Source of the DNA: a virus
IMG/VR virus record: IMGVR_UViG_3300028833_000146
Location: 9,322 to 73,321 of that record
DNA length: 64,000 bases
Strand: one strand, 5' to 3'
The notes below the pieces were generated by a model, which was not told where the DNA came from, did not search any database, and saw nothing but the letters and a program-made list of their open reading frames with translations. The position numbers and the translations under genes were made by a program. The stretch's first letter is position 1, and the number at the start of each line of letters is the position of its first letter. Shown piece by piece: positions 47,444 to 64,000 of the stretch.

Positions 47444-47465
47444 AAAATATAAACCTCCTATAATG

Positions 47466-47495
47466 TTCTATTATGAACTCTGTAAAATTTACGAA
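47466..47495 (-). promoter_or_regulatory. Conserved phage promoter-like motif
   Basis: plus strand TTCTATTATGAACTCTGTAAAATTTACGAA. Confidence 0.5.
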
Positions 47496-48359: not shown

Positions 48360-48370
48360 CGTTTCTCCTT

Positions 48371-51729: not shown

Positions 51730-51758
51730 TTTCATTATTGGGACTGTAAAATTTACGG
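51730..51758 (-). promoter_or_regulatory. Conserved phage promoter-like motif
   Basis: plus strand TTTCATTATTGGGACTGTAAAATTTACGG. Confidence 0.5.
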
Positions 51759-52658
51759 ATCCTGTACTTTTGCAAATAACCCTATGTCTGCTATGCTTAA
51801 CTGGAACGATAGTTTGTATACAATGCCATCATCGTTAAGTAATGAGCCAAGAGCATTAAGGATTTCATCACGTGATCCGCTTAAGTTCATTTGAGCATCT
51901 ACCAAAGCAGAAAACATAAAAGCCGGTTTTTTTTCAGGTTTCTCCTCAGTATTAAATATATGAGCATATTCCGAAACAGGCCTAATATGTGTCTGTTTGG
52001 CGATAGTCTCGTTGCCTTCAGGAATTAAAAGAATATCACTATTTCCTGTTTTTGGAGGTTCTTTTCTGGTTTCAATTTCAAAACGTTCCTTAAGGATTTC
52101 ATCATCAGTCTTACTCTGTGTTGGCTCAAATTCCCGTTCTTTTACTGTCTGAGCTTCTGTCCTCTGCACAACCTCTGCATCTTCTTTCTTTTCTGGCTTA
52201 GTGAGGAAATCAAGAAAACGTTCATCCATTGTTTTTCCGGTTCCGCCTTTCTTAAATAGCGTCTCAGACTTAAACTTGGCGCAGCAATACTGAGAAAATG
52301 TTCCCGGCTTCACGCCAAACATATCTGCAATATCGCGTTGACGAGCGCCATAGTTGTTTACAAGACCATTAATATAATTAACCTGCATCGTTTTTGGAAG
52401 AGATCTGAATTTCTTCCAATCATGAAGAGGCTCGTTCATATTAATGGAAAAACAAGGGCCACTAAGCTTTTTTTTCTGTGCAGGGGTCAAATGATCCGAA
52501 GGCAGGGTGCACCTCTTACTTTTACTTCCGTTCTTCTTATGAAATGCACCCGTCTTCATTTTGCTGCGTTCCGCCACATCTTGATTGAATACATAGCGCT
52601 CGTCTGTCATAAAATAATTCTCCTCACAATTAATTATCTTTGTTTCCTTTATTTCCAC
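51753..52658 (-). CDS. Hypothetical protein with central HTH-like segment
   Basis: 301 aa; GARQRDIADMFGVKPGTFSQY. Confidence 0.45.
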   Translation of the reverse strand: MEIKETKIINCEENYFMTDERYVFNQDVAERSKMKTGAFHKKNGSKSKRCTLPSDHLTPAQKKKLSGPCFSINMNEPLHDWKKFRSLPKTMQVNYINGLVNNYGARQRDIADMFGVKPGTFSQYCCAKFKSETLFKKGGTGKTMDERFLDFLTKPEKKEDAEVVQRTEAQTVKEREFEPTQSKTDDEILKERFEIETRKEPPKTGNSDILLIPEGNETIAKQTHIRPVSEYAHIFNTEEKPEKKPAFMFSALVDAQMNLSGSRDEILNALGSLLNDDGIVYKLSFQLSIADIGLFAKVQDP

Positions 52659-53576: not shown

Positions 53577-54047
53577 TCACATAATTGGAATTTTGTCAAA
53601 TACTGTTTCCCATACTTCGCGTTTGAGCGGTTTAAAACGTAATTTCCACATAATCTGCCGAACTGTAACTGTAGGATATAATCCGTTATCATCTGGCCCT
53701 TTGGCATGCTTTTTAAAAAAGTCAAGAAAACCAGAAGCTAAATATAAATCGTCCACTAAACAAGCGTCAATCTCTGTCCAATAAGTAGTTTTATTCTTCG
53801 GATTAAACCGCTGCTGGATGACGGCAAGTCCAGAACTACTAATTTTATACAACGTGCACGTAGTATAAATCGGATGGTTACACGCGTATGTTTCTCCATA
53901 TTGGCTAAAATATAATTTTGGAGGCTTATAATAATATCTCATAACGTACTTTATAAAGTGAAGAGCCAGTGTATTCTCTATTGGCTCTTCACTGGTTACT
54001 AACGTTTCAAGGTCGGATTCGGATGATTTGGCTCCTTGTTCTGCCAT
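53577..54047 (-). CDS. Hypothetical protein
   Basis: 156-aa ORF. Confidence 0.45.
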   Translation of the reverse strand: MAEQGAKSSESDLETLVTSEEPIENTLALHFIKYVMRYYYKPPKLYFSQYGETYACNHPIYTTCTLYKISSSGLAVIQQRFNPKNKTTYWTEIDACLVDDLYLASGFLDFFKKHAKGPDDNGLYPTVTVRQIMWKLRFKPLKREVWETVFDKIPIM

Positions 54048-54460
54048 CTAGCGAATCTCGAGGTGTATGCATGTCCATTCGACTCAAAATACTCAGATTT
54101 ATACTGAGCCCTGGAATTCGCGATCCAAGTTCCAAGAAAAGTTACTAAGGTCACACCGGCGGTTATGCAAACCTGAATCATAGTGCGTTTTGCCTCGCTA
54201 TCTTTCATGCGAGTTTCGTGCTCAAGCTTCTCGCTTTCTATGCCTCTCCGCATAGAATCGATAGTTGCTTCAGCATCGATCCTGTCTTGTTCGATAGTCA
54301 GCTTATTTCGTAACTCATCATCGTCGTTTGCCAACTCAATGTGCTTAACTAACTGCTTGGAAATCTTCTCATATTCGTCCGACTCAGGATTAATCGTCGC
54401 AAGTTTGTCGCTCAAACGTGCAATCTCTTCATCCAACTTCTGCCTACAAAGATCATTCAT
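53999..54460 (-). CDS. Coiled-coil protein with C-terminal TM helix
   Basis: 153-aa ORF. Confidence 0.45.
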   Translation of the reverse strand: MNDLCRQKLDEEIARLSDKLATINPESDEYEKISKQLVKHIELANDDDELRNKLTIEQDRIDAEATIDSMRRGIESEKLEHETRMKDSEAKRTMIQVCITAGVTLVTFLGTWIANSRAQYKSEYFESNGHAYTSRFARWQNKEPNHPNPTLKR

Positions 54461-54488
54461 TTGATTTCCTCCTCAAAATTTTAATATA

Positions 54489-54514
54489 CCATTATGGGAA
54501 CTGTACTTTTTGCG
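54489..54514 (-). promoter_or_regulatory. Conserved phage promoter-like motif (variant)
   Basis: plus strand CCATTATGGGAACTGTACTTTTTGCG. Confidence 0.45.
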
Positions 54515-54743
54515 AAGAATCGTCCTCGATTGCTACTTTAAAAATCACAGTTTTCATTTGAGGTATCCTTTCAGGAGGGATGTTAAACTCAAAAAGATAC
54601 TTATCACTTTCTTCTCCTCTAGTTACATGTATTATGCCATCATGCTTGTTTTGTCTAAAAAATATAAAACCGGCCACAGTTCCAACTAGAAAGCCGATAA
54701 AAAACAGCATATACCACTGCATATTATTAAGGACTTCAAACAT
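54492..54743 (-). CDS. Small membrane protein
   Basis: 83-aa ORF. Confidence 0.4.
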   Translation of the reverse strand: MFEVLNNMQWYMLFFIGFLVGTVAGFIFFRQNKHDGIIHVTRGEESDKYLFEFNIPPERIPQMKTVIFKVAIEDDSSQKVQFP

Positions 54744-54761
54744 TTCTAATGCCTCGCACGT

Positions 54762-55175
54762 TTAACGTCCAGTAGATCCAAAACCGGCTTCTCCACGGTC
54801 TGTTTCGCTAAGCTTATTAACTTCTTTAATATCACATACAGCACACGGTGTTATAACTAGCTGCGTAATCTTATCGCCGACATTAAAACTTACAATCTGC
54901 TTGCTGGCATTAAAAAGAATGGCGTGCACGGAACCTCGATATGAGCTATCGATTGTTCCACTGCTCGTCACTCCTTTAAGCATCAACCCTGATTTACTTG
55001 TGATTTGTCCTACATAACCATCCGGTATCTCTACATGAACTCCGGTATCAATATCTTTATGCTCACCGGGATATAGATCAAAATCATAAGGTGTTTTAAG
55101 ATCTAATCCGGCGTCCATAGGATGCGCACGCTTAGGCAAATACGCTCCATTATCGAGTTTTACTTTAATAGTCAT
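54762..55175 (-). CDS. dut: dUTP diphosphatase (dUTPase)
   Basis: AGLDL, GTIDSSYRG, RGEAGFGSTG trimeric dUTPase motifs. Confidence 0.9.
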   Translation of the reverse strand: MTIKVKLDNGAYLPKRAHPMDAGLDLKTPYDFDLYPGEHKDIDTGVHVEIPDGYVGQITSKSGLMLKGVTSSGTIDSSYRGSVHAILFNASKQIVSFNVGDKITQLVITPCAVCDIKEVNKLSETDRGEAGFGSTGR

Positions 55176-55384
55176 GGTGTTACTCCTTTAATAAATGTTT
55201 TATATTTTCCATGGTTATCAGCGATTGACACTTTATCTCCTGCGAGATAATAGCCCTTAATTTGGTTCCACACATAATCGAGCGAATCTCCTTCCCAGCA
55301 ACGAATATCAAAGATATTGCCTAGATGCTCTCCTTTGTAAATTACACGTTTAAGTTCGATCATCGCCATCCTCCTCAATATCAT
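55172..55384 (-). CDS. Hypothetical protein
   Basis: 70-aa ORF; ATGA coupling. Confidence 0.4.
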   Translation of the reverse strand: MILRRMAMIELKRVIYKGEHLGNIFDIRCWEGDSLDYVWNQIKGYYLAGDKVSIADNHGKYKTFIKGVTP

Positions 55385-55519
55385 AGAAAGCTAAAGGGAA
55401 AATATCCACGTGCTCATTATCGGTCCAGTTCATCTCGCTAGGATCAGTTTCGCCCACAAACTCAAGGAGTTCTTTCTTGGCTTTTTCGTTCAGATCATGG
55501 TAATAGATCGTAAATGTTT

Positions 55520-55753
55520 TCATTTAGCGCCTCCTAAAGCTACTTTAAGTTCGTCATAAAGCCATCTCATGCGTTTTTCCATCTGATCTGACTCGCCATG
55601 ATAATACGTTGTATCTGCATCGTTGAAGTTCTGATGTGAAACACACGCTTGAACCCGACTATGTGAATAAATATCGCCTGTCTCCATTAAAAGGTTAAGC
55701 TTCTGGAGCGGCGTAGCATTTTTATGAATATCAACAAACTCATCAAAGGTCAT
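55520..55753 (-). CDS. Hypothetical protein
   Basis: 77-aa ORF. Confidence 0.4.
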   Translation of the reverse strand: MTFDEFVDIHKNATPLQKLNLLMETGDIYSHSRVQACVSHQNFNDADTTYYHGESDQMEKRMRWLYDELKVALGGAK

Positions 55754-55965
55754 TCGATTTCCTCCTCGAGATAAGCACGGATCTTATCTTTACATTCTTC
55801 AGAAGTACAACGACAAGAAGTCTTACATGGACAATTCCAGCAATCTAAGAAATCAAAAGAAATATCTACAGCGTCATCGATTGTCTTAATGCTGCCATAA
55901 AGAAATTCCATTCCTGGTTTAAGTTGTTCGAATCTAGTCATGCTGTCTCCTTTCCATTTAAGCAA
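55750..55965 (-). CDS. Cys-rich small protein
   Basis: CWNCPCKTSCRC. Confidence 0.4.
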   Translation of the reverse strand: MLKWKGDSMTRFEQLKPGMEFLYGSIKTIDDAVDISFDFLDCWNCPCKTSCRCTSEECKDKIRAYLEEEIE

Positions 55966-56324
55966 AGCTTCTTAATTATTGTCTGAGGACTACGTATAAT
56001 TCTGCTCCAATCAGCAAACAGTTCCACTTGCTCAATCGAATAGTCGTCACAATACTCGCCATCGCCATTTTCTCGTCTATAAATAATAGAAGCTCCAAGA
56101 TCACAGTTGCTTTCATCGTCCCAGTAAGTTGTAATCGAGTAACCTTTAAGCAATGTGTCGTTTTTTATTTTTCTCGTGGTGTTATCGATCAGCTCCTCCA
56201 GATAACTGCGAGCGTCTTCATAAGAAAAGAAAACTCCAACCGTATGACAATCGCCGGCTTTAAAATTATCCCATTCTCGATTTAAAATCTGCCAGCATTT
56301 AATGAATTCTCTTTCCATACTCAA
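55938..56324 (-). CDS. Hypothetical protein
   Basis: 128-aa ORF. Confidence 0.45.
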   Translation of the reverse strand: MSMEREFIKCWQILNREWDNFKAGDCHTVGVFFSYEDARSYLEELIDNTTRKIKNDTLLKGYSITTYWDDESNCDLGASIIYRRENGDGEYCDDYSIEQVELFADWSRIIRSPQTIIKKLCLNGKETA

Positions 56325-56429
56325 CCTCCTCGTCTAGTTTTATGAAAAATATCTTTTAAATAAGTAAAAGGCCGATCGTTAAGACCAGCCTTTCCAGTTA
56401 AAGCATGATATATTATATGAACTCCAAAT

Positions 56430-56633
56430 TCAAAGATGACGACCACCGAAAATATCAACAGCAATAGCTGAATCATAGCCTGATCCTTTCTCAACAATAT
56501 TTATAGTTCCGTTTCCAGTTCGATCAATTGTTATGTCAGGAGTTAACCCGTTTACTGTGACTGCCAGATTTCCGTATTTTCGAATCAGCAATTCAAGAAT
56601 ACTCACAAATTCAGAAGCCTTGATCTCGTCCAT
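56430..56633 (-). CDS. Hypothetical protein
   Basis: 67-aa ORF. Confidence 0.35.
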   Translation of the reverse strand: MDEIKASEFVSILELLIRKYGNLAVTVNGLTPDITIDRTGNGTINIVEKGSGYDSAIAVDIFGGRHL

Positions 56634-56639
56634 TCGTGC

Positions 56640-56966
56640 TCACTTCATAAAACTTGTGTCATAATATGGCGGGAACGTGATTGTGAACTTATATGAATCA
56701 TCAGACCCAACATAAAAATAAATATTGTCTTTATTCATTCGATCTTTAAACATAATCCTCTTCAGATTAAAACGAAGATCGTCTGAAATTTGGATCTTCA
56801 TTTTATCGCAGAGTGCCGAAATACTTACATACCCTTTAGCCGCAAGAAGATCATTGTATTCTCTAATAAACTCTATCGCTGCCTCTTCATCTCGGAAATT
56901 AAATTGGTCCAAAATATCATTCACTTTATCCTGTGTATGGTATGAAAGCGCATATTTAGTTACCAT
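56640..56966 (-). CDS. Hypothetical protein
   Basis: 108-aa ORF. Confidence 0.4.
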   Translation of the reverse strand: MVTKYALSYHTQDKVNDILDQFNFRDEEAAIEFIREYNDLLAAKGYVSISALCDKMKIQISDDLRFNLKRIMFKDRMNKDNIYFYVGSDDSYKFTITFPPYYDTSFMK

Positions 56967-58215
56967 TCTTTTTCTCCTCTTTTATTTCTTTAATCGCGTC
57001 GTTCAATTCGCACCAAGCTATTCCAGCCCCTATCATTTCTGGTCCCTCTTTGAAAATATCATTCGCTAAACCACTGACCATGCGTACTACATAACTTCTT
57101 GGGACGCATCGTAGATTTGAAAGCTCACAGTTTTGTTTATTCCCGTCCAAGAATATAATGCAATGATCTTCCGGAATAGAGCCATTGGCTTGCTCCCAAA
57201 TATAACGGTGTTTTGTTACCCAATTCTCTCGCCAATTTTTTGTTGAGTCATTTACTGGAATATCTGAAAGTTTTATCCAAATATAGCCGCTGTTAACTAT
57301 CTCAGTTCCAATGGGTTTAGTGTTTGTTGCAACAGGGGGCTTCTTAGGAATCTGTGTTCTTCCTTCTTTTTCTCTCAAGTTTCTGATTCTTCCGAAAACG
57401 CTATCCATGCTAAGTTTTATACCAAATTTATCTGACATGTCTTCAGCAAGTTGCGAATAAAACATATTCTGGTAATTGTCTAGTAGGTACTTGTCCATAT
57501 CATCGGTCCATCGCACTTTGCGTCTTAAGTTTAACCTGGTTACTTTGTTATTAATGCTATTCTCAGTCATCTGAACGTTAAACTTCTTGGACATAGTTGT
57601 AGCCAGCTCTTCATAGGTCATATATTCAAAATTATCAATAAGAAACTGGATCATTTCGTCGGTCCAATATGTCTTTCCTTTATGGCCCTTTTTAAAGATG
57701 TTGGGATCTTTTTTCAAACGCATTTGTCTAAGCTGATACGAAATACCCCATACAGTAATTGAGAGATTGAACTTTTCGGACATCTCAATAGCTAAATCTT
57801 CGTATTTCATCTTGGCATAATTATTAGCTAAAAACTCGCGCATTTCATCAGTCCAAATACTACTGTTATTCTGAGTTAATCCTAATTTCCGTAACTTATG
57901 CCCTATGCTTTCTTCGTTCATCGGAACGCCATATCTTTCAGACATAATAGATGCAAGATCTTTATGAAGCATGGACCCATAATTATCAACAAGAAACCGA
58001 ACCATTTTGTCGGTCCAATAAGATTTTCCTTTACATCCTTTTTTCAGCCCTAACTGACCAAGCTTTCTAGAAATATAATTATGATCCATAACTACACAGA
58101 ACTTTTCACTCATTACAGCAGCTAGATCGTCATAGTTCATTAAAGTATAGTTGCTGGACAGAAATTGGATCATCTCCTCTGTCCAGCGAACATCTGACCG
58201 TCTATTTCTACTCAT
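56956..58215 (-). CDS. HNH endonuclease with five tandem Myb/SANT-like DNA-binding repeats (homing-endonuclease-like)
   Basis: Five ~50-60-aa repeats WT(D/E)(D/E)M..FL..NY..M.Y..LA..MS.KF...; C-terminal HNH (IIFLDGNKQNCELSNLRCV); start ATG 58215 overlaps the upstream stop, since the track start 58302 adds a junk hydrophobic N-terminus inside the upstream gene. Confidence 0.6.
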   Translation of the reverse strand: MSRNRRSDVRWTEEMIQFLSSNYTLMNYDDLAAVMSEKFCVVMDHNYISRKLGQLGLKKGCKGKSYWTDKMVRFLVDNYGSMLHKDLASIMSERYGVPMNEESIGHKLRKLGLTQNNSSIWTDEMREFLANNYAKMKYEDLAIEMSEKFNLSITVWGISYQLRQMRLKKDPNIFKKGHKGKTYWTDEMIQFLIDNFEYMTYEELATTMSKKFNVQMTENSINNKVTRLNLRRKVRWTDDMDKYLLDNYQNMFYSQLAEDMSDKFGIKLSMDSVFGRIRNLREKEGRTQIPKKPPVATNTKPIGTEIVNSGYIWIKLSDIPVNDSTKNWRENWVTKHRYIWEQANGSIPEDHCIIFLDGNKQNCELSNLRCVPRSYVVRMVSGLANDIFKEGPEMIGAGIAWCELNDAIKEIKEEKKNGN

Positions 58216-58465
58216 CGGCAGCCACCAAAATCGCAATCTCAGAAGATTTAGGCAGCTTCTGCTCATAAACAAGCTTCTGAGCGCGCAGGATAACATCCGC
58301 ATTATTTATCATCTGCTTTGAAAGGCTAGAAAAGACCGCTGCAGAATCAAGAACTTTCTTCTGCGTTTCTCTCGGCAGGTTCTCGCTATCTTTTACCTTT
58401 TTAAGTTCTTCTCCGAGCATGTTATGCAGATCGATAAGATTCATTCTCTTTCTCCTTTTTAGCAC
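58208..58465 (-). CDS. Hypothetical protein
   Basis: 85-aa ORF. Confidence 0.45.
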   Translation of the reverse strand: MLKRRKRMNLIDLHNMLGEELKKVKDSENLPRETQKKVLDSAAVFSSLSKQMINNADVILRAQKLVYEQKLPKSSEIAILVAADE

Positions 58466-58469
58466 GTCA

Positions 58470-58823
58470 TTAAGATCCGATTAGTTCGTGTTCAATTATT
58501 TCAAAATAAAAATCCCACAGTTTCCATGGACGCTTTAGATCTTCATCTTCTTCATCGTCAGCATCTGAAATCTGAGCACCTCGAATATATTTTCTGGATA
58601 CCTCAGTATTGCGCCATGGATTTCTTTCATTCAATTCCTGTTCATCATATTCTTTTATTAGTTTTGGAAATTCGAACTCACTAACTTTTAGAATATCAAG
58701 ATTTTTCACTGCGTTCTCTGCCAGCTCTTTTGTGGCATAGAAACCAATCGCCATTTCATAGTCTTCACGAGCTTCATAAGATTCATAATTAGCGCAACGG
58801 CAGCGGATTTCATAAATTTTCAT
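58470..58823 (-). CDS. Hypothetical protein (Cys-containing)
   Basis: ATG 58823 after AAAGGAGAAAAAG (track start 58961 translates the RBS as ERRKRM). Confidence 0.45.
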   Translation of the reverse strand: MKIYEIRCRCANYESYEAREDYEMAIGFYATKELAENAVKNLDILKVSEFEFPKLIKEYDEQELNERNPWRNTEVSRKYIRGAQISDADDEEDEDLKRPWKLWDFYFEIIEHELIGS

Positions 58824-59325
58824 TCTTTTTCTCCTTTCTAAGCAGCCGAAGAAATATCTCTTCGAACTTCTCCCATTCTTCGTCTCGCTCCTCTGAGTCG
58901 AGATTACGATCTCGTGTATATTCATATGACTTCTGAATATCAATACCACCATGTTTTTCAAGTACTTTGTCCACTACTTCGACTGGAACCCATCCGTAGA
59001 CCGTATCCATTGGAACATTCGGATTTTCAGCATATCCTATCAATTCTTCATCTTCTTCAGTGGGAAAGCCGAGCTCAACGCTTTTATACGGTTTAAACTT
59101 TGAAACACGAATTTGGGACCTCCATCTTGGAATGAAACCGAACTTTGAAATATCAATCTGAGATTTTCTTGGCTCACAATAATGGTCCTCGCTAGCCTGA
59201 ATAGATACTCCGAATCCATCCTTACAGATAACAAATGGTCTTCTAAATTGCTGAAACGATGACCAGTCAGAATAAGTATGGACAGTACCACACCAAAATG
59301 CTTCAAGAAACTGATTAGTATTCAT
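58810..59325 (-). CDS. Hypothetical protein
   Basis: ATG 59325 after AAAGGAGAAAGAG. Confidence 0.45.
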   Translation of the reverse strand: MNTNQFLEAFWCGTVHTYSDWSSFQQFRRPFVICKDGFGVSIQASEDHYCEPRKSQIDISKFGFIPRWRSQIRVSKFKPYKSVELGFPTEEDEELIGYAENPNVPMDTVYGWVPVEVVDKVLEKHGGIDIQKSYEYTRDRNLDSEERDEEWEKFEEIFLRLLRKEKKNENL

Positions 59326-59651
59326 TCTCTTTCTCCTTTCCAAATAAACCCAGTCTGTTCGTACAAAAGCTTAGGGGAAATATAATAGTTAATCTTCCCT
59401 TTCCGTGAGTCGATGTCCTGCACGTCTAGGATCACATGACCGTTCCTAGTTGCAGTTCCAATCGGCAACCAACCGGCAATGATACCTGCATGTATCCAAC
59501 AAGGATCCTTACCAAACACTCGAGCAGCTACTTTAGTCGGAACTGATCCTGGAGGAAATGTCACGTCTGGCTTTAGCTTCTCTCCAAGCTGTGCCTTAAT
59601 ATCTGTTATCAGTTGTTCTAATTCTCCAATTGTTAACTGCGAAATATCCAT
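59322..59651 (-). CDS. Hypothetical protein
   Basis: 109-aa ORF. Confidence 0.4.
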   Translation of the reverse strand: MDISQLTIGELEQLITDIKAQLGEKLKPDVTFPPGSVPTKVAARVFGKDPCWIHAGIIAGWLPIGTATRNGHVILDVQDIDSRKGKINYYISPKLLYEQTGFIWKGERE

Positions 59652-59953
59652 CAGGCTCTCCTTTTCTTAGTCCGCTCAAGTATCGCCAGATCATACTCCT
59701 TTTCAATGTAACGAATATAAATAGGTATTTTGTCTATTGTTCTAACCACTGCTGTGTCGAGTTTATTCCAATGATTTTTAAAAGCTCTAGTCAGTGTTAC
59801 TCCGTTATATCCGAAATATTCTTTAATACCCTTTCGATACTTCTGACGAAAAAGAAAATAGTCTTTGTTTTCATACTTAATATAAAAATCATGGTACGCC
59901 TGATCTTTATGCTCGTCATATACCATCACACAATAAATACGCGGATTCTTCAT
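59651..59953 (-). CDS. Hypothetical protein
   Basis: 100-aa ORF with RBS GGAGGAAAC. Confidence 0.4.
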   Translation of the reverse strand: MKNPRIYCVMVYDEHKDQAYHDFYIKYENKDYFLFRQKYRKGIKEYFGYNGVTLTRAFKNHWNKLDTAVVRTIDKIPIYIRYIEKEYDLAILERTKKRRA

Positions 59954-59967
59954 AGTTTCCTCCTTAA

Positions 59968-59994
59968 AGTAATTATCGACTGTAGCAAAATATC
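59968..59994 (-). promoter_or_regulatory. Promoter-like motif (variant, -10 GATAAT)
   Basis: plus strand AGTAATTATCGACTGTAGCAAAATATC. Confidence 0.4.
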
Positions 59995-60077
59995 ATATTT
60001 TCTTGTCGTCTGCGTGCGGGTTATACAAAAGAAAAGAGCCCATGTCAGAACTCTTTTCTACTCAAACTATTGCATGT

Positions 60078-60299
60078 TCATATGTGTAGCTGCAGATCTT
60101 TATCGCTTGCAGTGACTCCTAGGTAAAATTCTGCTATGCTGAGACCTAGTTCAATAATGCCTAAGCTAGCTAAAATCTTCACTGCTGCTAAATTTCCAGT
60201 AGCAACTATAATAGCAGTAACTCCGAGCGCAAATCTTAATAACGCCTCGGCATAGCCCAAACCTAAAACAATTCGTGCAAGTTTATCCGAATAGTGCAT
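60078..60299 (-). CDS. Small membrane protein (holin-like, speculative)
   Basis: 73 aa, two TM helices, GGAGGTAGATT RBS. Confidence 0.45.
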   Translation of the reverse strand: MHYSDKLARIVLGLGYAEALLRFALGVTAIIVATGNLAAVKILASLGIIELGLSIAEFYLGVTASDKDLQLHI

Positions 60300-60323
60300 A
60301 ATCTACCTCCAAATATAATAGTA

Positions 60324-60352
60324 TTTCATTATATTAGCTGTAAAAAATACGG
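60324..60352 (-). promoter_or_regulatory. Conserved phage promoter-like motif
   Basis: plus strand TTTCATTATATTAGCTGTAAAAAATACGG. Confidence 0.5.
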
Positions 60353-60367
60353 GGCATGTAAAGCCCC
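60340..60367 (-). terminator. Hairpin terminator whose T-run overlaps the next promoter motif
   Basis: GGGGCATGTAAAGCCCC then a T-run on the minus strand. Confidence 0.45.
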
Positions 60368-60377
60368 AAATATAAAA

Positions 60378-60542
60378 CTACTCTTTATTTACATTCAGTA
60401 TATCGTTAACCTGCTTCTCTGTAAGTCCGGTTTTCAACGCGATCCAGCCATAAGTATAGCCTTTCTGTCTAAAACGCTCGATCTCGTTGGCTAACTTAGC
60501 TGATACTGTCGTACCGTTTCTTTTAATAGTTTTTACAGACAT
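60378..60542 (-). CDS. Small HTH DNA-binding protein (Cro/excisionase-like size)
   Basis: ATG 60542 after GGAGGTATTGTC; GYTYGWIALKTGLTEKQVNDIL. Confidence 0.5.
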   Translation of the reverse strand: MSVKTIKRNGTTVSAKLANEIERFRQKGYTYGWIALKTGLTEKQVNDILNVNKE

Positions 60543-60570
60543 GACAATACCTCCAAAATATAAATAATTA

Positions 60571-60599
60571 TTCACTATACAGCCTGTAAAAATTACGAA
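60571..60599 (-). promoter_or_regulatory. Conserved phage promoter-like motif
   Basis: plus strand TTCACTATACAGCCTGTAAAAATTACGAA. Confidence 0.5.
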
Positions 60600-60643
60600 A
60601 TTATTAATTATAGATGACAAAATTATTACATAACAGTCTGTTT

Positions 60644-60699
60644 CTATCCTAGATTAAGTGGTATACTCCTCTCGTGCGCACGGATTTAATCTAGAATAG
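60644..60699. promoter_or_regulatory. Operator-like inverted repeat flanking an extended -10 promoter for the plus-strand gene
   Basis: Arms CTATCCTAGATTAA (60644-60657) and TTAATCTAGAATAG (60686-60699) match 13 of 14 as an inverted repeat; between them TGgTATACT (extended -10, 60659-60667) and the palindrome CGTGCGCACG (60673-60682); the right arm overlaps the AGGAG RBS of 60711..61112. Confidence 0.5.
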
Positions 60700-60710
60700 G
60701 AGAAATATAA

Positions 60711-61112
60711 ATGAATCAGAGATCTGTTATTTCGCAAAAGAACAAATATTGGATCCCAAAACACAGGTACCTTGAACTTAAGCACTATTGCATGCAATAT
60801 CCTGAGTGGAAATCGGCTTTAAGATCAATCGCTCTTCTGCAAGCGCATTCCGATAAAATATCTGCTGATGGTTTTTCAGATCCAACAAACAGCATTGCTA
60901 TAAAAGAACTTAAATATAAAGAAAAGATGCAACTTGTTGAGTCTGTAGCCATTCAAACAGATCCCGAAATAGCTAAGTGGATCATCGAAGGAGTCATCAA
61001 CAGTTACAGCTATGAATATTTAAAATATCAACTTGGACTTCCTGCGGGACGAGACCTATACTACGACCGGTATCGTAAATTCTTCTGGCTTTTAGATCAA
61101 CGCAAAGCATAA
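60711..61112 (+). CDS. Hypothetical protein on the opposite strand (switch or moron gene)
   Basis: AGGAG RBS 8 nt before ATG 60711; 133 aa; only plus-strand gene in the region; divergent from the HTH gene. Confidence 0.55.
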   Translation: MNQRSVISQKNKYWIPKHRYLELKHYCMQYPEWKSALRSIALLQAHSDKISADGFSDPTNSIAIKELKYKEKMQLVESVAIQTDPEIAKWIIEGVINSYSYEYLKYQLGLPAGRDLYYDRYRKFFWLLDQRKA

Positions 61113-61144
61113 AAAAAAAGAGGGAGGCATCTGTAGCGTCCCTC
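61111..61144 (-). terminator. Intrinsic terminator
   Basis: GAGGGAGGCATCTGTAGCGTCCCTC, T9 on the minus strand. Confidence 0.55.
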
Positions 61145-61151
61145 TATAATC

Positions 61152-61460
61152 TCATGCTACAGGTGTCTCCACCTCTGGTACTGAAATATCATTCTCTACT
61201 GGAATCTCAGTGCTAGGGATTTCAGGATCAACTGGAGTTGAGGTCATCTCCGTTGCTTTCATGATCGCAATCGCCGCAGTAGCAGCGGCAGTAGCGACGC
61301 CAATATAGCTGCATACAGTCGCAACCGTCTTACCGACTGGTTTACGATCTCCTTTGGCAGCTTCTCGCTTAGCTTTTCGCTCTGCCCTCTTCTCTGCGCG
61401 GATTGTTTTCCGTTCAGCATGGTTGGCCTTAATAGCTCCAAAATTAATCACTTTTTCCAT
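61152..61460 (-). CDS. Basic protein with C-terminal TM helix
   Basis: ATG 61460 after AAAGGAATTACTATT (track TTG at 61544 is less likely). Confidence 0.45.
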   Translation of the reverse strand: MEKVINFGAIKANHAERKTIRAEKRAERKAKREAAKGDRKPVGKTVATVCSYIGVATAAATAAIAIMKATEMTSTPVDPEIPSTEIPVENDISVPEVETPVA

Positions 61461-61495
61461 AATAGTAATTCCTTTCTTTAAAAAATATTTAGTAT

Positions 61496-61524
61496 CCATT
61501 ATAGAAACTGTATTTTTTACGAAT
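61496..61524 (-). promoter_or_regulatory. Conserved phage promoter-like motif
   Basis: plus strand TCCATTATAGAAACTGTATTTTTTACGAA. Confidence 0.5.
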
Positions 61525-61552
61525 AAAAAATGAGGCCGTTGCAAACAGCCTC
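61524..61552 (-). terminator. Intrinsic terminator
   Basis: GAGGCCGTTGCAAACAGCCTC then a T-run on the minus strand. Confidence 0.5.
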
Positions 61553-61562
61553 GAACTGGGAA

Positions 61563-61739
61563 TCATTCGTCGCTATGTCGTCTCATAGAAGAATCAACTA
61601 ATTTGCAGATTCCAAATATCGCTGCGCCTGGAATCTTGAATGCACAAAATACAACAACCATTGACAAAAACCAATAATCCAGCATCGCTCGCCATATATA
61701 ACCTGCTATTTCTTTTGCCTTTTCTACAAAATCATACAT
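61563..61739 (-). CDS. Small membrane protein
   Basis: ATG 61739 after TTTAGGAGGTATTATT; MYDFVEKAKEIAGYIW... with a TM helix. Confidence 0.4.
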   Translation of the reverse strand: MYDFVEKAKEIAGYIWRAMLDYWFLSMVVVFCAFKIPGAAIFGICKLVDSSMRRHSDE

Positions 61740-61762
61740 AATAATACCTCCTAAAATATAGA

Positions 61763-61792
61763 TTCCATTATATAATCTGTACTTTTTTCGAA
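61763..61792 (-). promoter_or_regulatory. Conserved phage promoter-like motif
   Basis: plus strand TTCCATTATATAATCTGTACTTTTTTCGAA. Confidence 0.5.
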
Positions 61793-61830
61793 AGAGTAAG
61801 GCTATGTAAGCCAAACTCTTTCTAAAGTAA

Positions 61831-62055
61831 TTATTTAATTCCAATGTAATCGCCGTATTCATCGTATTCGCTTTCATCACAGCTATCACCGGCTAACGTG
61901 TCGAAACCGAGAACTAGCAGGGTAATCCCAAGGCCTAATTCTATTCCCTGTACCATATCTACCTTGGTCTCCCATACAAGTGCTCCGGTAATCGCCATTA
62001 TCACCCAAACAGCTAAAACCAGCATAACTCCAATAAATTTTGTTGATTTTTTCAT
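61831..62055 (-). CDS. Small membrane protein
   Basis: ATG 62055 after AAAGGAGATTATAAA; MKKSTKFIGVMLVLAVWVIMAITGALVW... Confidence 0.45.
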   Translation of the reverse strand: MKKSTKFIGVMLVLAVWVIMAITGALVWETKVDMVQGIELGLGITLLVLGFDTLAGDSCDESEYDEYGDYIGIK

Positions 62056-62080
62056 TTTATAATCTCCTTTAAAAGTATTT

Positions 62081-62110
62081 CTTTCATTAAAGAGACTGTA
62101 AAATTTACGG
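62081..62110 (-). promoter_or_regulatory. Conserved phage promoter-like motif
   Basis: plus strand CTTTCATTAAAGAGACTGTAAAATTTACGG. Confidence 0.5.
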
Positions 62111-62136
62111 CAAAAAAGAGGGCAATGTAAGCCCTC
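62111..62136 (-). terminator. Intrinsic terminator (loop ATGTAAG)
   Basis: GAGGGCAATGTAAGCCCTC then T6 on the minus strand; overlaps the stop codon of 62135..62293. Confidence 0.5.
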
Positions 62137-62293
62137 AGTCCTTCCTTTTCTTATCCCCAATATCTAATCGGCGAAACTTTTCCTTATTATAACTTCGTAC
62201 GACCTTCGATACGATCAACGATAATAGCATAGTAGCCACTATGACTATTAGTATGAACATAAAAATTGTCGATTTGTTTGCAATAATTATCAT
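62135..62293 (-). CDS. Small membrane protein (52 aa), not in ORF track
   Basis: TAAAAGGAGAATACTCT-ATG 62293; MIIIANKSTIFMFILIVIVATMLLSLIV... Confidence 0.4.
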   Translation of the reverse strand: MIIIANKSTIFMFILIVIVATMLLSLIVSKVVRSYNKEKFRRLDIGDKKRKD

Positions 62294-62317
62294 AGAGTAT
62301 TCTCCTTTTAAATATTA

Positions 62318-62347
62318 TTTCATTAAAGAGCTTGTAAATTTTACGAA
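62318..62347 (-). promoter_or_regulatory. Conserved phage promoter-like motif
   Basis: plus strand TTTCATTAAAGAGCTTGTAAATTTTACGAA. Confidence 0.5.
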
Positions 62348-62399
62348 AAAATAAAAGTGCCTGTTTTCTTTTATTACGGACCAGATTACCCGTTAATCT

Positions 62400-62545
62400 G
62401 CTTTACTTCACACTGCGTTGGTCAGTAAGCCCGTAACCAGTTCGGTCAAAACTGGCGAGTAGCATGACCGTGCTACTCTGGAAGCTTCCTTTTCCCAAGG
62501 AATTTAATGCCGCCACGTTTCGTTTTCGTCGCCCAGCAACTTCTT
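62400..62545 (-). ncRNA. Candidate structured ncRNA (~145 nt) driven by a conserved promoter motif
   Basis: GC-richer than flanks; no RBS or credible ATG after the promoter at 62548-62577; perfect local stems in the sense RNA: GAGUAGCA-CGGUCA-UGCUACUC, CCAGUU-UUGACCG-AACUGG, CAGAUUA-ACGGG-UAAUCUG; the 70-aa track ORF 62403..62615 starts with TTG inside the upstream terminator and looks spurious. Confidence 0.3.
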
Positions 62546-62547
62546 TC

Positions 62548-62577
62548 TTTTCATTATAGGACCTGTATTTTTTACGA
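62548..62577 (-). promoter_or_regulatory. Conserved phage promoter-like motif
   Basis: plus strand TTTCATTATAGGACCTGTATTTTTTACGAA. Confidence 0.5.
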
Positions 62578-62580
62578 AAT

Positions 62581-62613
62581 ATAAAAACTAAGGGAGGTGT
62601 AATCCTACCTCCC
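62581..62613 (-). terminator. Intrinsic terminator (loop GTGTAATCC)
   Basis: GGGAGGTGTAATCCTACCTCCC then a T-rich run on the minus strand. Confidence 0.5.
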
Positions 62614-62826
62614 AATGCTTTGCCAAAAACTAACTATACCATCAATAAAATCGCTAACTTCTACACAAGTAAGCTTATCGCCGCTAGCAGCCAGCATTAG
62701 TTCATTAGCATGTTTTAAAGCGTTCATAGTGCCATTCTCGTATCCCCAACTATACATTTCGAATGCACCTAATGCCAAACAAGCAATAAATATCAATGCC
62801 AGCAGCACATTAAATAATCTACTCAT
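62605..62826 (-). CDS. Small membrane protein
   Basis: AAGGAGG RBS; MSRLFNVLLALIFIACLALGAF... Confidence 0.45.
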   Translation of the reverse strand: MSRLFNVLLALIFIACLALGAFEMYSWGYENGTMNALKHANELMLAASGDKLTCVEVSDFIDGIVSFWQSIGR

Positions 62827-62858
62827 AAAAATGCCTCCTTATTTGATAAAGTATTATG

Positions 62859-62888
62859 TTTTCATAATATAAGATGTAATATTTACGG
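62859..62888 (-). promoter_or_regulatory. Conserved phage promoter-like motif
   Basis: plus strand TTTTCATAATATAAGATGTAATATTTACGG. Confidence 0.5.
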
Positions 62889-62890
62889 AC

Positions 62891-62920
62891 AAAAAAATGA
62901 GGGGCGCTGTAATACCCCTC
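62891..62920 (-). terminator. Intrinsic terminator (loop GCTGTAATAC)
   Basis: GAGGGGCGCTGTAATACCCCTC then T7 on the minus strand. Confidence 0.5.
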
Positions 62921-62927
62921 GTCCTCA

Positions 62928-63077
62928 TTAGTCATCTTCGTACAATACCTTATCGGACCACTTACGTATAAACTTTCCGTAACTTTTAGGGAACGCGTAC
63001 ATCCAAATTATCATGGCAACTCCGGCCACGAAACTGAACAGATAAGTAATCCCTGCAATTTTCATAAATTTACTCAT
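62928..63077 (-). CDS. Small membrane protein (49 aa), not in ORF track
   Basis: AAAGGAGAACCATT-ATG 63077; MSKFMKIAGITYLFSFVAGVAMIIWMYAF... Confidence 0.4.
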   Translation of the reverse strand: MSKFMKIAGITYLFSFVAGVAMIIWMYAFPKSYGKFIRKWSDKVLYEDD

Positions 63078-63100
63078 AATGGTTCTCCTTTAAAATAGTA

Positions 63101-63130
63101 TTTTCATTATAAGAGCTGTAATTTTTATCC
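63101..63130 (-). promoter_or_regulatory. Conserved phage promoter-like motif
   Basis: plus strand TTTTCATTATAAGAGCTGTAATTTTTATCC. Confidence 0.5.
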
Positions 63131-63144
63131 CCCCCCCGATTTTG

Positions 63145-63173
63145 ATGAAAAATGAGGGGAGTTGTATCCCCTC
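63145..63173 (-). terminator. Intrinsic terminator (loop GTTGTA)
   Basis: GAGGGGAGTTGTATCCCCTC then a T-run on the minus strand. Confidence 0.5.
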
Positions 63174-63185
63174 TTGCTCCTCCTT

Positions 63186-63344
63186 TCAATCGTAATCCCA
63201 ATCCATGCCATCATAGCTGGATCCATAATCACAAGTAGCCCCATAACCTCTGAGGTCAACAATAGAATCTTTTGTCTCCACGTACATTACCATGTGAGTT
63301 CTCGAATCGTACATCGTTACCATCTGAATGCTGGGGTTTTCCAT
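63186..63344 (-). CDS. Small acidic protein (52 aa), not in ORF track
   Basis: TTTGGAGGATTATATT-ATG 63344; MENPSIQMVTMYDSRTHMVMYVETKDSIVDLRGYGATCDYGSSYDGMDWDYD. Confidence 0.35.
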   Translation of the reverse strand: MENPSIQMVTMYDSRTHMVMYVETKDSIVDLRGYGATCDYGSSYDGMDWDYD

Positions 63345-63380
63345 AATATAATCCTCCAAAATGATGTGATTTGAGATTTA

Positions 63381-63410
63381 TTTCTCATTATAGAAACTGT
63401 AATTTTTGCG
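63381..63410 (-). promoter_or_regulatory. Conserved phage promoter-like motif
   Basis: plus strand TTTCTCATTATAGAAACTGTAATTTTTGCG. Confidence 0.5.
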
Positions 63411-63434
63411 TATTATGTAAACTTATAGAAAAAA

Positions 63435-63520
63435 ATAGCCGTTGTGGAATTGAACCACTTCTCATCCGGCGTTTTTCGTTCGACTATTCCCGATGCGCAT
63501 TTACCGTAATGCTAATGGCT
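63435..63520 (-). ncRNA. tRNA-like ncRNA (acceptor, D- and T-arms recognisable; anticodon arm aberrant)
   Basis: Sense RNA AGCCAUUAGCAUUACGGUAAAUGCGCAUCGGGAAUAGUCGAACGAAAAACGCCGGAUGAGAAGUGGUUCAAUUCCACAACGGCUA followed by U7: acceptor AGCCAUU/AACGGCU (6 of 7), D-arm GCAUU-ACGGUA-AAUGC, T-arm GUGG-UUCAAUU-CCAC, central CAUCGG/CCGGAUG helix closing a 20-nt loop; sits between its own promoter motif and a U-run; no protein-coding potential. Confidence 0.35.
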
Positions 63521-63526
63521 ATTTTT

Positions 63527-63557
63527 CTTTCATTATATGCATTGTAAAATTTGCGAA
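63527..63557 (-). promoter_or_regulatory. Conserved phage promoter-like motif
   Basis: plus strand CTTTCATTATATGCATTGTAAAATTTGCGAA. Confidence 0.5.
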
Positions 63558-63582
63558 AAAGAGAGCCTGTGTAAGAGCTCTC
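63556..63582 (-). terminator. Intrinsic terminator (loop CTGTGTAAG)
   Basis: GAGAGCCTGTGTAAGAGCTCTC then T5 on the minus strand. Confidence 0.5.
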
Positions 63583-63590
63583 GACTCGTA

Positions 63591-63962
63591 TTATTTCAAC
63601 AACTTCATACTTGCCAGGATCTGAGCCATTGATTCGCCATTCGAGCGTCTCTGGTCAATTTCCAGCGCTTCACTAGGTTTAAGCTTTCTATTAAGCTCGT
63701 GATAATAACCGAGCGAACGATCGTAAATATAAAGATCTTTCAGGTCCTGTTCCTTCTTCAGGTCGATCTTCCGGTCAACAGACTTAGCAATTCCGCTAAC
63801 TGTCTTAATAACCGTAATCCCTACCGGAATTAGAATTCCTGCTGTAATCTCTTTGTTTTCCTTCATCCACTCAATTGCCTGACGAGTCTTGTACTTCGCT
63901 TTAAATGTAAAGCCTGTCCATCTCGCATTCATTTCGCTCTTGATGTCTTCAAATGATTTCAT
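63591..63962 (-). CDS. Hypothetical protein with central TM helix
   Basis: ATG 63962 seven nt after GGAGG; TATAAT -10 at 63992-63997 on the minus strand. Confidence 0.45.
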   Translation of the reverse strand: MKSFEDIKSEMNARWTGFTFKAKYKTRQAIEWMKENKEITAGILIPVGITVIKTVSGIAKSVDRKIDLKKEQDLKDLYIYDRSLGYYHELNRKLKPSEALEIDQRRSNGESMAQILASMKLLK

Positions 63963-63983
63963 AATTTTTCCTCCAAATATAAA

Positions 63984-64000
63984 TTTTGTCATTATAGCAA
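63984..64000 (-). promoter_or_regulatory. Promoter motif, truncated by window end
   Basis: plus strand TTTTGTCATTATAGCAA (TATAATGACAAAA on the minus strand). Confidence 0.35.

Follow-up and report, generated by a model that had tools for sequence, protein, structure and literature searches.

We analysed a 64,000-nucleotide (nt) stretch of phage DNA, referred to throughout as the window, that corresponds to positions 9,322 to 73,321 of IMG/VR virus record IMGVR_UViG_3300028833_000146. A 30-base-pair (bp) motif is reiterated in the window ahead of small genes and non-coding units, is found in the sense orientation only, and recurs, its spacing unchanged, in Firmicutes and Actinobacteria phages that have a polymerase gene in common. 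Our favoured reading, to which we assign a probability of roughly 0.6, is that this motif is a promoter read by the phage's own YonO-like single-chain two-barrel RNA polymerase (10895-13972), with transcription starting at the G that follows an AT-rich hexamer near the end of the motif. If this reading holds, the motif would represent the first proposed promoter of this polymerase family. Both the phage group and the polymerase-like gene that serves as its signature were known already; what appears to be new is a promoter and terminator set for a family with none described.

A reiterated 30-bp motif with strict strand and position bias

In its sense form the window consensus is TTCG(T/C)AAATTTTACAG-N4-TATAATGAAA, and TTCGTAAATTTTACAG-N4-TATAATGAAA was used as the search pattern. 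The motif is laid out as a CGC box (positions 3-5), an ACA box (positions 13-15), an AT-rich hexamer (positions 21-26) and a G-A-purine-A segment (positions 27-30). Seven matches are found at three or fewer mismatches, against 0.00 expected from 100 dinucleotide-preserving shuffles, and the 15 matches found at seven or fewer mismatches all lie on the minus strand. When both strands (128 kb) were scanned with a weight matrix of the window copies, these 15 scored between 24.6 and 40.9 and were cleanly separated from the next-best site, which scored 13.3 at 14943. Under the family-wide matrix described below this runner-up rises to 19.3, and we count it as a weak sixteenth copy. The total for the window is 15 strong copies and one weak copy, with none antisense. 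They are listed here together with an edge-cut copy and a look-alike:

63987-64000, minus strand: promoter copy cut by the window edge (..TTGCTATAATGACA; TATAATGA at 63996-63989), ahead of a 123-amino-acid (aa) open reading frame (ORF) at 63962-63591
63528-63557, minus strand: promoter copy TTCGCAAATTTTACAATGCATATAATGAAA, heading a non-coding tRNA-like unit; family matrix score 38.4
63383-63412, minus strand: promoter copy TACGCAAAAATTACAGTTTCTATAATGAGA, ahead of a 52-aa ORF at 63344-63186
63102-63131, minus strand: promoter copy GGGATAAAAATTACAGCTCTTATAATGAAA, with a degenerate upstream CGC box, ahead of a 49-aa ORF; score 23.4
62860-62889, minus strand: promoter copy TCCGTAAATATTACATCTTATATTATGAAA, ahead of a 73-aa ORF
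62549-62578, minus strand: promoter copy TTCGTAAAAAATACAGGTCCTATAATGAAA, heading a non-coding unit of ~190 nt; score 42.0
62318-62347, minus strand: promoter copy TTCGTAAAATTTACAAGCTCTTTAATGAAA, hexamer TTTAAT (position 2 not A)
62082-62111, minus strand: promoter copy GCCGTAAATTTTACAGTCTCTTTAATGAAA, hexamer TTTAAT
61763-61792, minus strand: promoter copy TTCGAAAAAAGTACAGATTATATAATGGAA, from the mismatch and matrix scans
61494-61523, minus strand: promoter copy TTCGTAAAAAATACAGTTTCTATAATGGAT, from the mismatch and matrix scans
60570-60599, minus strand: promoter copy TTCGTAATTTTTACAGGCTGTATAGTGAAT, ahead of a 54-aa ORF with a helix-turn-helix (HTH)-like segment
60324-60353, minus strand: promoter copy CCCGTATTTTTTACAGCTAATATAATGAAA, whose upstream part is the T-run of the preceding terminator
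59966-59999, minus strand: possible degenerate copy TTTTGCTACAGTCGATAATTACTT that falls short of the matrix threshold; ORF 59953-59651 follows
54487-54516, minus strand: promoter copy TTCGCAAAAAGTACAGTTCCCATAATGGTA, overlapping the 3' end of the upstream ORF
51730-51759, minus strand: promoter copy TCCGTAAATTTTACAGTCCCAATAATGAAA, from the mismatch and family-matrix scans
47466-47495, minus strand: promoter copy TTCGTAAATTTTACAGAGTTCATAATAGAA, from the mismatch and family-matrix scans
36531-36560, minus strand: promoter copy GTCGCAAATTTTACAGCTCCTTAAATGAAA, hexamer TTAAAT
14943-14972, minus strand: weak copy AGCGTAAAAAATACACCGCGCATAATAGGA, ~1 kb upstream of the polymerase gene, at the same position as in most related loci

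These scans bear out the observation, made in a preliminary description of the window, that a motif of about 30 bp is reiterated far above chance. The copy numbers given there need revision. Seventeen copies had been reported, although the regional figures offered (14 and four) add up to 18. For 59968-64000, where 14 had been placed, we find 11 complete copies (60324, 60570, 61494, 61763, 62082, 62318, 62549, 62860, 63102, 63383 and 63528), the edge-cut copy, and the sub-threshold look-alike near 59966-59999. Three of the four outlying copies reported (36531, 47466 and 51730) are present at those positions, and the fourth, given as 54489, is at 54487.

All genes of the window but one are on the minus strand. 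Without exception, copies of the motif are intergenic or overlap the final 7-25 nt of the upstream ORF, rather than being spread evenly inside ORFs. Each either precedes a Shine-Dalgarno sequence, at a distance of 8-25 nt, or heads a non-coding unit; this placement had been recognized before, with a distance of 20-40 nt. The hexamer had likewise been described as a perfect -10 sequence, TATAATG. Most copies are indeed perfect or nearly so, with an A at hexamer position 2 and a T at position 6 in 12 of 15, but the copies at 62082 and 62318 (both TTTAAT) and 36531 (TTAAAT) lack the A at position 2.

Phages that encode the polymerase carry the same motif

An exact scan of IMG/VR with the pattern TTTTACAG-N4-TATAATGAAA yielded five contigs, each with 6-16 reiterated copies of the motif. 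The 38 loci with a single match form a biased control because the exact 22-mer is present in them by construction, and the antisense strand is the cleaner control. Relatives were read in the early regions of complete genomes that encode a homologue of the polymerase, where the motif takes the following forms:

Streptomyces phage Bilo (GC 0.61): GTCGCACGTTTTACATGGCTTATAATGAGAcccctac
Lactococcus phage 1706 (GC 0.33): TTCGCATGTTTTACATATACTATAGTAGAA
Arthrobacter phage Mudcat: TTCGCGTAAATTACATGGGCTATAATAGAA
Bifidobacterium phage BitterVaud1: TTCGCGATAAAAACATCGCTTATGATGAAA
Gordonia phage Tanis: TTCGCAGGGAATACACGTCCTATAATGAGAcccctaYgaaagg, 13 copies
Faecalibacterium phage FP_oengus: GACGCGAAAAATACAGCCTCCTTTATGGAA, 13 copies

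All seven polymerase-encoding phages examined carry the motif, and they span six host genera in two phyla, the Firmicutes and the Actinobacteria. Its spacing is the same in every relative (C3-G4-C5, A13-C14-A15, hexamer at 21-26, G27-A28). Individual elements vary: phage 1706 has CAC where the others have CGC, and the hexamer of FP_oengus is CTTTAT in 13 of 13 copies. A family matrix identified 124 instances in 12 sequences, every one of them on the sense strand, and the information content peaks at positions 3-5, 13-15 and 21-28.

The association was also evident in 82 IMG/VR loci (1.13 Mb) that were picked solely for encoding the polymerase. These contain 107 matches to the motif on the polymerase strand versus one on the opposite strand, and at least one match is present in 65 of the 82. 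In most of these loci a copy lies ~970 nt upstream of the polymerase gene, as does the weak copy at 14943 in the window.

Literature searches (full text, motif strings) turned up no account of this promoter consensus, and none of the terminator-loop signature presented below; the 1706 genome paper (Garneau 2008) lies outside their coverage. Papers on Arthrobacter phages, Microbacterium phages and the interphylum phage group do not mention a promoter motif.

A candidate reader with two helix-turn-helix domains

The window encodes a large terminase, a portal protein, a 1319-aa primase-polymerase, a helicase and a 1025-aa polymerase-like protein, the last of which is the proposed reader of the motif:

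10895-13972, minus strand: YonO-like single-chain RNA polymerase, 1025 aa, with SGADFDGD and an HTH domain at each end

This protein matches phrog_4291 (annotated as an RNA-dependent RNA polymerase) with E = 1e-300. At residues 556-563 it carries SGADFDGD, which conforms to the DxDGD pattern of the metal-binding loop of two-barrel RNA polymerases and is invariant in an alignment of six sequences. The HTH segments near both ends match sigma-70 region 4 and LuxR-type models, and only these parts were matched in a Pfam scan and in a sequence search of the PDB with a polymerase profile. The two-barrel core is putative, assigned from the phrog_4291 match, the HHpred analysis of Koert et al., and Ruprich-Robert and Thuriaux. 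Koert et al. described an interphylum phage group whose signature gene combines two HTH domains with a core resembling an RNA-dependent RNA polymerase (HHpred), and did not discuss promoters. The phage 1706 protein constitutes one of the five YonO-like families of Ruprich-Robert and Thuriaux (PMC2919709). DNA-dependent RNA polymerase activity has been proven for YonO itself, in work that explicitly did not determine the promoter sequence (Forrest et al. 2017, PMC5467207).

Homologues of the polymerase, ~40% identical over more than 90% of their length, are present in 250 phage records that include Arthrobacter, Gordonia, Streptomyces, Lactococcus (1706-like), Microbacterium, Rhodococcus, Curtobacterium, Bifidobacterium and Faecalibacterium phages. 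The distribution of the primase-polymerase matches that of the RNA polymerase, with 252 records having the former at full length and 250 having the latter. Judged by these proteins, the window belongs to the known siphophage group that includes Lactococcus phage 1706, Faecalibacterium phage FP_oengus and several actinophage clusters; FP_oengus is the closest isolate by primase-polymerase (52% identity). No DNA near-identical to 59800-64000 was found among 50,697 phage records. The sole match to the polymerase in a bacterial genome (71% identity) is on a 10-kb contig (L132, CALGGR010000011.1) of a metagenome-assembled genome binned as Fretibacterium, which is too weak a basis for assigning a host.

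Phages that infect hosts from Lactococcus to Streptomyces, and that are only ~40% identical in their proteins, keep the CGC and ACA boxes at a fixed spacing, so a conserved phage protein of some kind must be reading them. A polymerase with two fused HTH domains is the obvious candidate. We propose that these domains would contact the CGC and ACA boxes, which are about one helical turn apart, that the AT-rich hexamer would be the melting region, and that transcription would begin at or next to G27 in a geometry of the T7/SP6 type. The homologues of phage 1706 and Rhodococcus phage ReqiPoco6 are annotated 'structural protein', so the polymerase is plausibly delivered in the virion. In that case it would be injected with the DNA and fire these promoters at the start of infection, each promoter driving one short unit, which contains a small ORF or specifies a small RNA and would end at a GC hairpin and U-run.

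Several considerations weigh against this proposal. It derives from sequence comparison across the family, and because all these phages form one related group, shared ancestry could by itself account for finding motif and polymerase together; the collection contains no relative that has the primase-polymerase and lacks the RNA polymerase (252 versus 250 records). In most lineages the hexamer is a perfect TATAAT, the consensus -10 element of the main host sigma factor, which leaves room for reading by the host enzyme or by both enzymes. Association with the virion depends on the annotation of two database records. FP_oengus encodes an integrase, so that on induction of a prophage there would be no injected polymerase and the host enzyme would first have to make it. 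Finally, the motif copy ahead of the polymerase gene is itself a weak one, and some other entry, either virion delivery or a host promoter, would be needed.

Host and phage geometries compared

The preliminary description had judged that the motif is not a standard -35/-10 promoter, and we concur. No copy has a -35 box at 16-18 bp; that position reads TTTTTC, TATTTC or TTTGCC, which match a TTGACA-like box at only two or three of six positions. The TG of an extended -10 element is present in 0 of 15 copies. A scan of 54000-64000 for sigma-70 promoters gave 33 sites versus 32.6 expected. Conservation also continues past the hexamer, as GAAA in general and as GAGACCCCTA in actinophages, a property characteristic of phage-polymerase promoters and not of host ones.

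The position of downstream elements further constrains the start site. In 33 of 124 instances a Shine-Dalgarno core begins 0-5 nt past the hexamer, as in TATAAT-GAAAGGAGG and TATAAT-GAAAGGAGGATATTGAAATG. A tRNA-like gene of FP_oengus (called by ARAGORN at L131 2935-3006, with an odd anticodon loop) begins at motif position 28, or 1-2 nt after the hexamer. Because a start 6-8 nt downstream would truncate these Shine-Dalgarno sites and the tRNA-like gene, we infer that transcription starts within ~0-4 nt of the hexamer. The -35 box and the TG extension were each sought and not found, the downstream elements speak indirectly against a sigma-70 start geometry, and for these reasons the motif does not qualify as a sigma-70 promoter.

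These data bear on an account in which the motif is an ordinary host promoter. The main sigma factor would read TATAAT as its -10 element, and the upstream block and T-run would represent an AT-rich UP-like element or shared cassette ancestry. Such an account draws on the perfect or near-perfect TATAAT of most copies and lineages, on the recognition of TANNNT-type -10 elements by primary sigma factors in Firmicutes as well as in Actinobacteria, and on the general rule that the host enzyme reads the early genes of most phages. We nevertheless consider it unlikely. Beyond the missing -35 box and TG extension, sigma-70-family factors need an A at -10 position 2, which is absent from three window copies and from 13 of 13 FP_oengus copies. 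The ribosome-binding sites and tRNA-like gene located 0-5 nt past the hexamer would be truncated by a start 6-8 nt downstream, and the CGC and ACA boxes hold their spacing in phages with ~40%-identical proteins and with hosts of different phyla. Two alternatives had been raised beforehand, an extended-type host promoter and a promoter for the phage RNA polymerase-like protein. The first is disfavoured by the lack of TG in all 15 copies, the lack of a -35 box, and the conservation of the boxes across two phyla whose phages share the polymerase; the second is the one we favour.

Alternatively, a phage DNA-binding protein that recognizes the CGC and ACA boxes could redirect the host core polymerase, which would then do the transcribing, in a manner comparable to T4 MotA/AsiA or a phage sigma factor. 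The large HTH protein could serve as such a sigma-like factor or activator, or another early protein could do so. The upstream boxes do call for a conserved phage reader, the HTH domains of the large protein resemble sigma region 4, and a 54-aa early protein has a weakly similar HTH. However, the large protein keeps its catalytic DFDGD loop and a conserved core of ~900 aa, both of which would be superfluous in a mere specificity factor. Moreover, 20 other mid-sized proteins of the window were examined and yielded no sigma domain, and the constraints on the start site oppose sigma-70 geometry. Redirection of the host enzyme is, in our estimation, improbable.

Three other architectures were considered and rejected. 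TTTACA as a -35 box with an AT-rich -10 element downstream gave inconsistent spacing, too short a leader and no enrichment over shuffles. A sigma-54-like -24/-12 geometry fails by sequence mismatch. A hairpin within the promoter is not a family-wide feature, because the inverted repeat is confined to some lineages: it is present in all BitterVaud1 copies (GCGAT..ATCGC) and in some window (GTAAA.TTTAC) and Mudcat copies, and is absent from Tanis, Bilo, 1706 and most copies of the L012 group (the related contigs L012, L025 and L039).

Terminator-like hairpins with a recurrent loop word

The preliminary description stated that most units end with a GC hairpin and U-run. This is well supported, since 54000-64000 contains 16 hairpin and T-run elements versus 5.1 expected. 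They consist of GC stems of 5-9 bp and loops of 3-13 nt followed by a T-run, and they sit after the ends of ORFs on the coding strand, in the arrangement typical of an intrinsic terminator. By shape they look like ordinary intrinsic terminators. The early-cassette hairpins and two others are as follows:

63561-63582, minus strand: terminator-like hairpin GAGAGCT-CTTACACA-GGCTCTC with T-run
63154-63173, minus strand: terminator-like hairpin GAGGGGA-TACAAC-TCCCCTC with T-run
62899-62920, minus strand: terminator-like hairpin GAGGGGT-ATTACAGC-GCCCCTC with T-run
62592-62613, minus strand: terminator-like hairpin GGGAGGT-AGGATTAC-ACCTCCC with T-rich tail
62118-62136, minus strand: terminator-like hairpin GAGGGC-TTACATT-GCCCTC with T-run
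61791-61820, minus strand: hairpin with apical GGCT-TACAT-AGCC within a longer AAGAGT../..ACTCTT stem; fold -18.1 kcal/mol
61532-61552, minus strand: terminator-like hairpin GAGGCTGTT-TGC-AACGGCCTC with T-run, the sole early-cassette hairpin without TACA
61119-61145, minus strand: terminator-like hairpin AGAGGGA-CGCTACAGATGCC-TCCCTCT with a run of nine T
60350-60368, minus strand: terminator-like hairpin TGGGGC-TTTACAT-GCCCCG, with a T-run that also belongs to the 60324 promoter
60030-60059, minus strand: terminator-like hairpin with loop TGACAT
47263-47281, minus strand: terminator-like hairpin GGAGTCT-TTTAC-AGACTCC, with TTTACAG across the loop-stem junction; outside the array
36282-36301, minus strand: terminator-like hairpin GAGGGTC-TACAAC-GGCCCTC; outside the array

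Sense-strand TACA is present in eight of ten early-cassette loops, against 0.19 expected (P ~1e-12). The eight loops are CTTACACA, TACAAC, ATTACAGC, AGGATTAC with the adjoining A, TTACATT, TACAT, CGCTACAGATGCC and TTTACAT; a ninth reads TGACAT. The loop word is also found in two terminators beyond the array (47281 and 36301). Nine of 11 loops had been said to contain (C/T)TGTAA, but exact TGTAA (plus strand) occurs in six, and the (C/T) prefix mostly fails. Among 87 terminator-like hairpins from 11 related sequences, ACA occurs in 35 loops versus 9.4 expected, and TGT in one versus 7.4 expected. The near absence of the complement indicates that the ACA signal is strand-specific.

The loop word also tends to mirror the version of the ACA box used by the promoters of each lineage:

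Window: loop TTACA, promoter box TTTTACAG
L012, L025 and L039: loop TAAACAG, promoter box AAACAG
BitterVaud1: loop GATGGAAACAT, with an identical 11-mer in one promoter
Mudcat: loop CTAACA(C/A), promoter box ATTACA

Thus the earlier proposal that loops and promoters share a recognition word holds statistically in the window, in L012, L025 and L039, and in Mudcat and BitterVaud1. It fails for FP_oengus (loop GAAA) and for the related sequence L036 (UUCG or UACG), and these loops also show that the polymerase family does not require ACA loops.

The distance from the loop word to the U-run is ~14 nt, the same as that from the promoter ACA box to G27, and is weak evidence because it is partly set by ordinary terminator dimensions. 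One suggestive possibility is that the loop word is functional: the attached promoter-reading domain would re-engage it and favour pausing at the U-run ~14 nt downstream. A fixed composite site formed by the loop word and the promoter ACA box was rejected because the distance to the next promoter varies from 18 to 35 nt.

The loops may instead have no function of their own. The terminator-promoter cassettes would then be paralogues that arose by duplication and recombination, like the promoter and stem-loop cassettes known from T4-type phages, and the loop word would be inherited with them rather than selected. We take this seriously as a tentative explanation. Terminators form near-identical families within each genome, as with GAGCTTACGA-GAAA-TCGTAGGCTC in FP_oengus, GCCCC-TTCG-GGGGC in L036 and TAACCC-CACAA-GGGTTA in Tanis, a pattern that implies duplication and concerted evolution of cassettes. 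Window stems are all GAGGG-like, L012 has an extra cassette relative to L025 and L039, and FP_oengus and L036 manage with ordinary GAAA, UUCG or UACG loops. Simple inheritance accounts less well for the variation among window stems that keep the loop word (eight of ten versus 0.19 expected), for its strand specificity (35 ACA versus one TGT in 87 loops), and for the way it follows the ACA-box variant of the promoter in several lineages. Overall, the idea of a shared loop word is suggestive though not general, and any role of the loops beyond ordinary termination is putative.

Combining these elements would give a minimal, sigma-free system, distributed from Firmicutes to Actinobacteria phages, in which a virion-delivered polymerase finds its promoters unaided through HTH domains bound to the CGC and ACA boxes and starts just after the hexamer. 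Its ACA-loop terminators would mimic promoters, so that the same domain re-engages and brings about pausing and release ~14 nt downstream. In this complete form we regard the scheme as a long shot.

Relationship to known transcription systems

The nearest system in mechanism would appear to be the virion-polymerase regulon of phage P23-45, while the promoter architecture is closest to that of T7 and SP6. In this Thermus phage, the first genes are transcribed by the virion two-barrel polymerase gp96 from conserved AT-rich promoters that are specific to it, a conserved motif recurs in several gp96 terminators, and relatives without the polymerase are without the promoter motif (bioRxiv 10.1101/2022.12.01.518664). 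Unlike the protein considered here, gp96 forms a fusion with the tape-measure protein, and no HTH fusions have been reported for it; its promoters are unrelated in sequence to the window motif. Measured start sites and polymerase occupancy are available for P23-45, whereas here the start site is predicted from sequence.

The promoters of T7 and SP6 are contiguous, rigid and strand-specific, span 23-30 bp, and place an AT-rich stretch before a purine-rich start (in SP6, ..CACTATA followed by GAAGA). The window motif resembles them in its ..TATAAT followed by GAAA, in conservation that extends into the transcribed region, and in reiteration before many genes. It differs in that the T7 enzyme has a Pol-I-like fold unrelated to the two-barrel enzymes, and in that the start here is inferred.

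Coliphage N4 injects a T7-like virion RNA polymerase whose early promoters are extruded DNA hairpins. Early promoters served by an injected phage polymerase are what we propose here as well. A hairpin promoter of the N4 type was rejected, since the inverted repeat exists in some lineages only and the N4 enzyme is not a two-barrel polymerase.

The promoter-early/stem-loop (PeSL) cassettes of T4-type phages, which Arbiol et al. are said to have described in 2010, reportedly consist of a stem-loop and a sigma-70 early promoter that flank small early genes. They are similar to the window array in being reiterated stem-loop and promoter modules with small, poorly conserved ORFs, and in that relatives differ by whole cassettes. 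They differ in that their promoters are sigma-70 promoters of a T4-type myovirus, whereas the window phage belongs with a siphovirus group (1706, FP_oengus and actinophages). Sigma-70 or sigma-A promoters share with the motif a TATAAT-like hexamer, and a promoter word met during elongation could cause a pause, as in sigma-dependent promoter-proximal pausing, which is a speculative basis for the ACA loops. They differ from it in that the motif has no -35 box and no TG extension, tolerates T at hexamer position 2, and would have its start 0-4 nt after the hexamer.

YonO of the Bacillus prophage SPbeta (PMC5467207) belongs to the same class of YonO-like single-chain DNA-dependent RNA polymerases. 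It transcribes a late operon from a single mapped start, whereas the window motif precedes many early and middle units. Enzymes of this class are seen as minimal relatives of the cellular multi-subunit polymerase, and how they find promoters is a standing question. A 30-bp consensus with ~16 copies per genome and hundreds of natural variants, in phages whose hosts range from 32 to 61% GC, makes promoter recognition by this family testable. For a large phage group, which numbers at least 250 sequenced isolates and at least 523 metagenomic loci, it also serves as a transcription map. It could account for the ability of these phages to maintain a base composition very different from that of the bacteria they infect. 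The motif and polymerase may furthermore provide a compact orthogonal pair for Gram-positive hosts.

The cassette array and its non-coding units

From 64000 to ~59950, successive units open with the motif, continue with either one small ORF (49-123 aa) or non-coding sequence, and close with a GC hairpin and T-run, to give eleven promoter-unit-hairpin modules in 4 kb. The T-run of a terminator runs directly into the TTCG of the next motif. Such an overlap had been noted at 60340-60352, and we observe it at 60338-60353. The array of L012 has one whole cassette (a promoter and a small ORF, L012 12331) that is missing from the closely related L025 and L039, a sign that cassettes may be gained or lost at their boundaries.

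Two units of the array, 63524-63428 and 62545-62348, have no ORF:

63428-63524, minus strand: non-coding unit of 97 nt from promoter to T-run, a cloverleaf-like RNA with a tRNA-type T-arm GUGGUUCAAUUCCAC and an 8-bp acceptor-like stem; fold z = -2.28
62348-62545, minus strand: structured non-coding unit of ~190 nt from promoter to T-run, with no convincing ORF; minimum free energy -58 kcal/mol, z = -2.17

Neither has a match in Rfam or is called by ARAGORN. At the gathering threshold, Rfam identifies only a tRNA-Ile (10084-10157) in the window, and a relaxed E-value adds chance-level matches in the array region; as nothing beyond chance was obtained there, the two units belong to no described family. 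Non-coding units like 62348-62545 are also located inside the arrays of the L012 group and of Tanis.

The cassette array also holds the only plus-strand gene of the window (60711-61112, 133 aa), which matches phrog_11237, a family annotated as of unknown function. Upstream of it is an extended -10 element of the host type, TGgTATACT, flanked by an operator-like inverted repeat (TAGATTAA/TTAATCTA), and the gene may encode a host-transcribed regulator. On the minus strand, 60378-60542 encodes the 54-aa early protein mentioned above. Its HTH (KGYTYGWIALKTGLTEKQVNDIL) has weak BLASTP similarity to the N-terminal HTH of the polymerase (E = 0.022), and the protein could compete for the promoter boxes.

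Other features of the window

A long AT-rich non-coding stretch at 10200-10650 ends in CACCCCCCTCTACATCGCCGGCC, a sequence similar to the right genome end of Bilo (CCCCCCTTCTGCATCGCCGCCCT). This is probably the cos site, in which case the window would span the junction of the genome ends. This stretch is followed by the tRNA-Ile (anticodon TAT) at about 10083-10158.

The region 14960-15500, just upstream of the nuclease-polymerase operon, is non-coding and rich in repeats (TTTTTTGTGCCCACAAATAAT, CTGGCCAAAAT and a run of 27 T). Comparable repeat regions occupy the same genome position in Bilo (38817-39202) and Tanis (44832-45128). The region looks like a replication origin or packaging site.

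In the middle region, 44415-49189 of the minus strand encodes four paralogous DUF6353 proteins of 356, 297, 287 and 272 aa. Bilo, Tanis and Mudcat have in common a non-coding element with CTTAAACGAC in one intergenic region (L047 26990-27160; L051 27247-27410; L049 23310-23433). A hairpin of the window, GGTCTTAACGATCGGCC (~56366-56394), may be related to this element. The element is a candidate for a family-wide small RNA.

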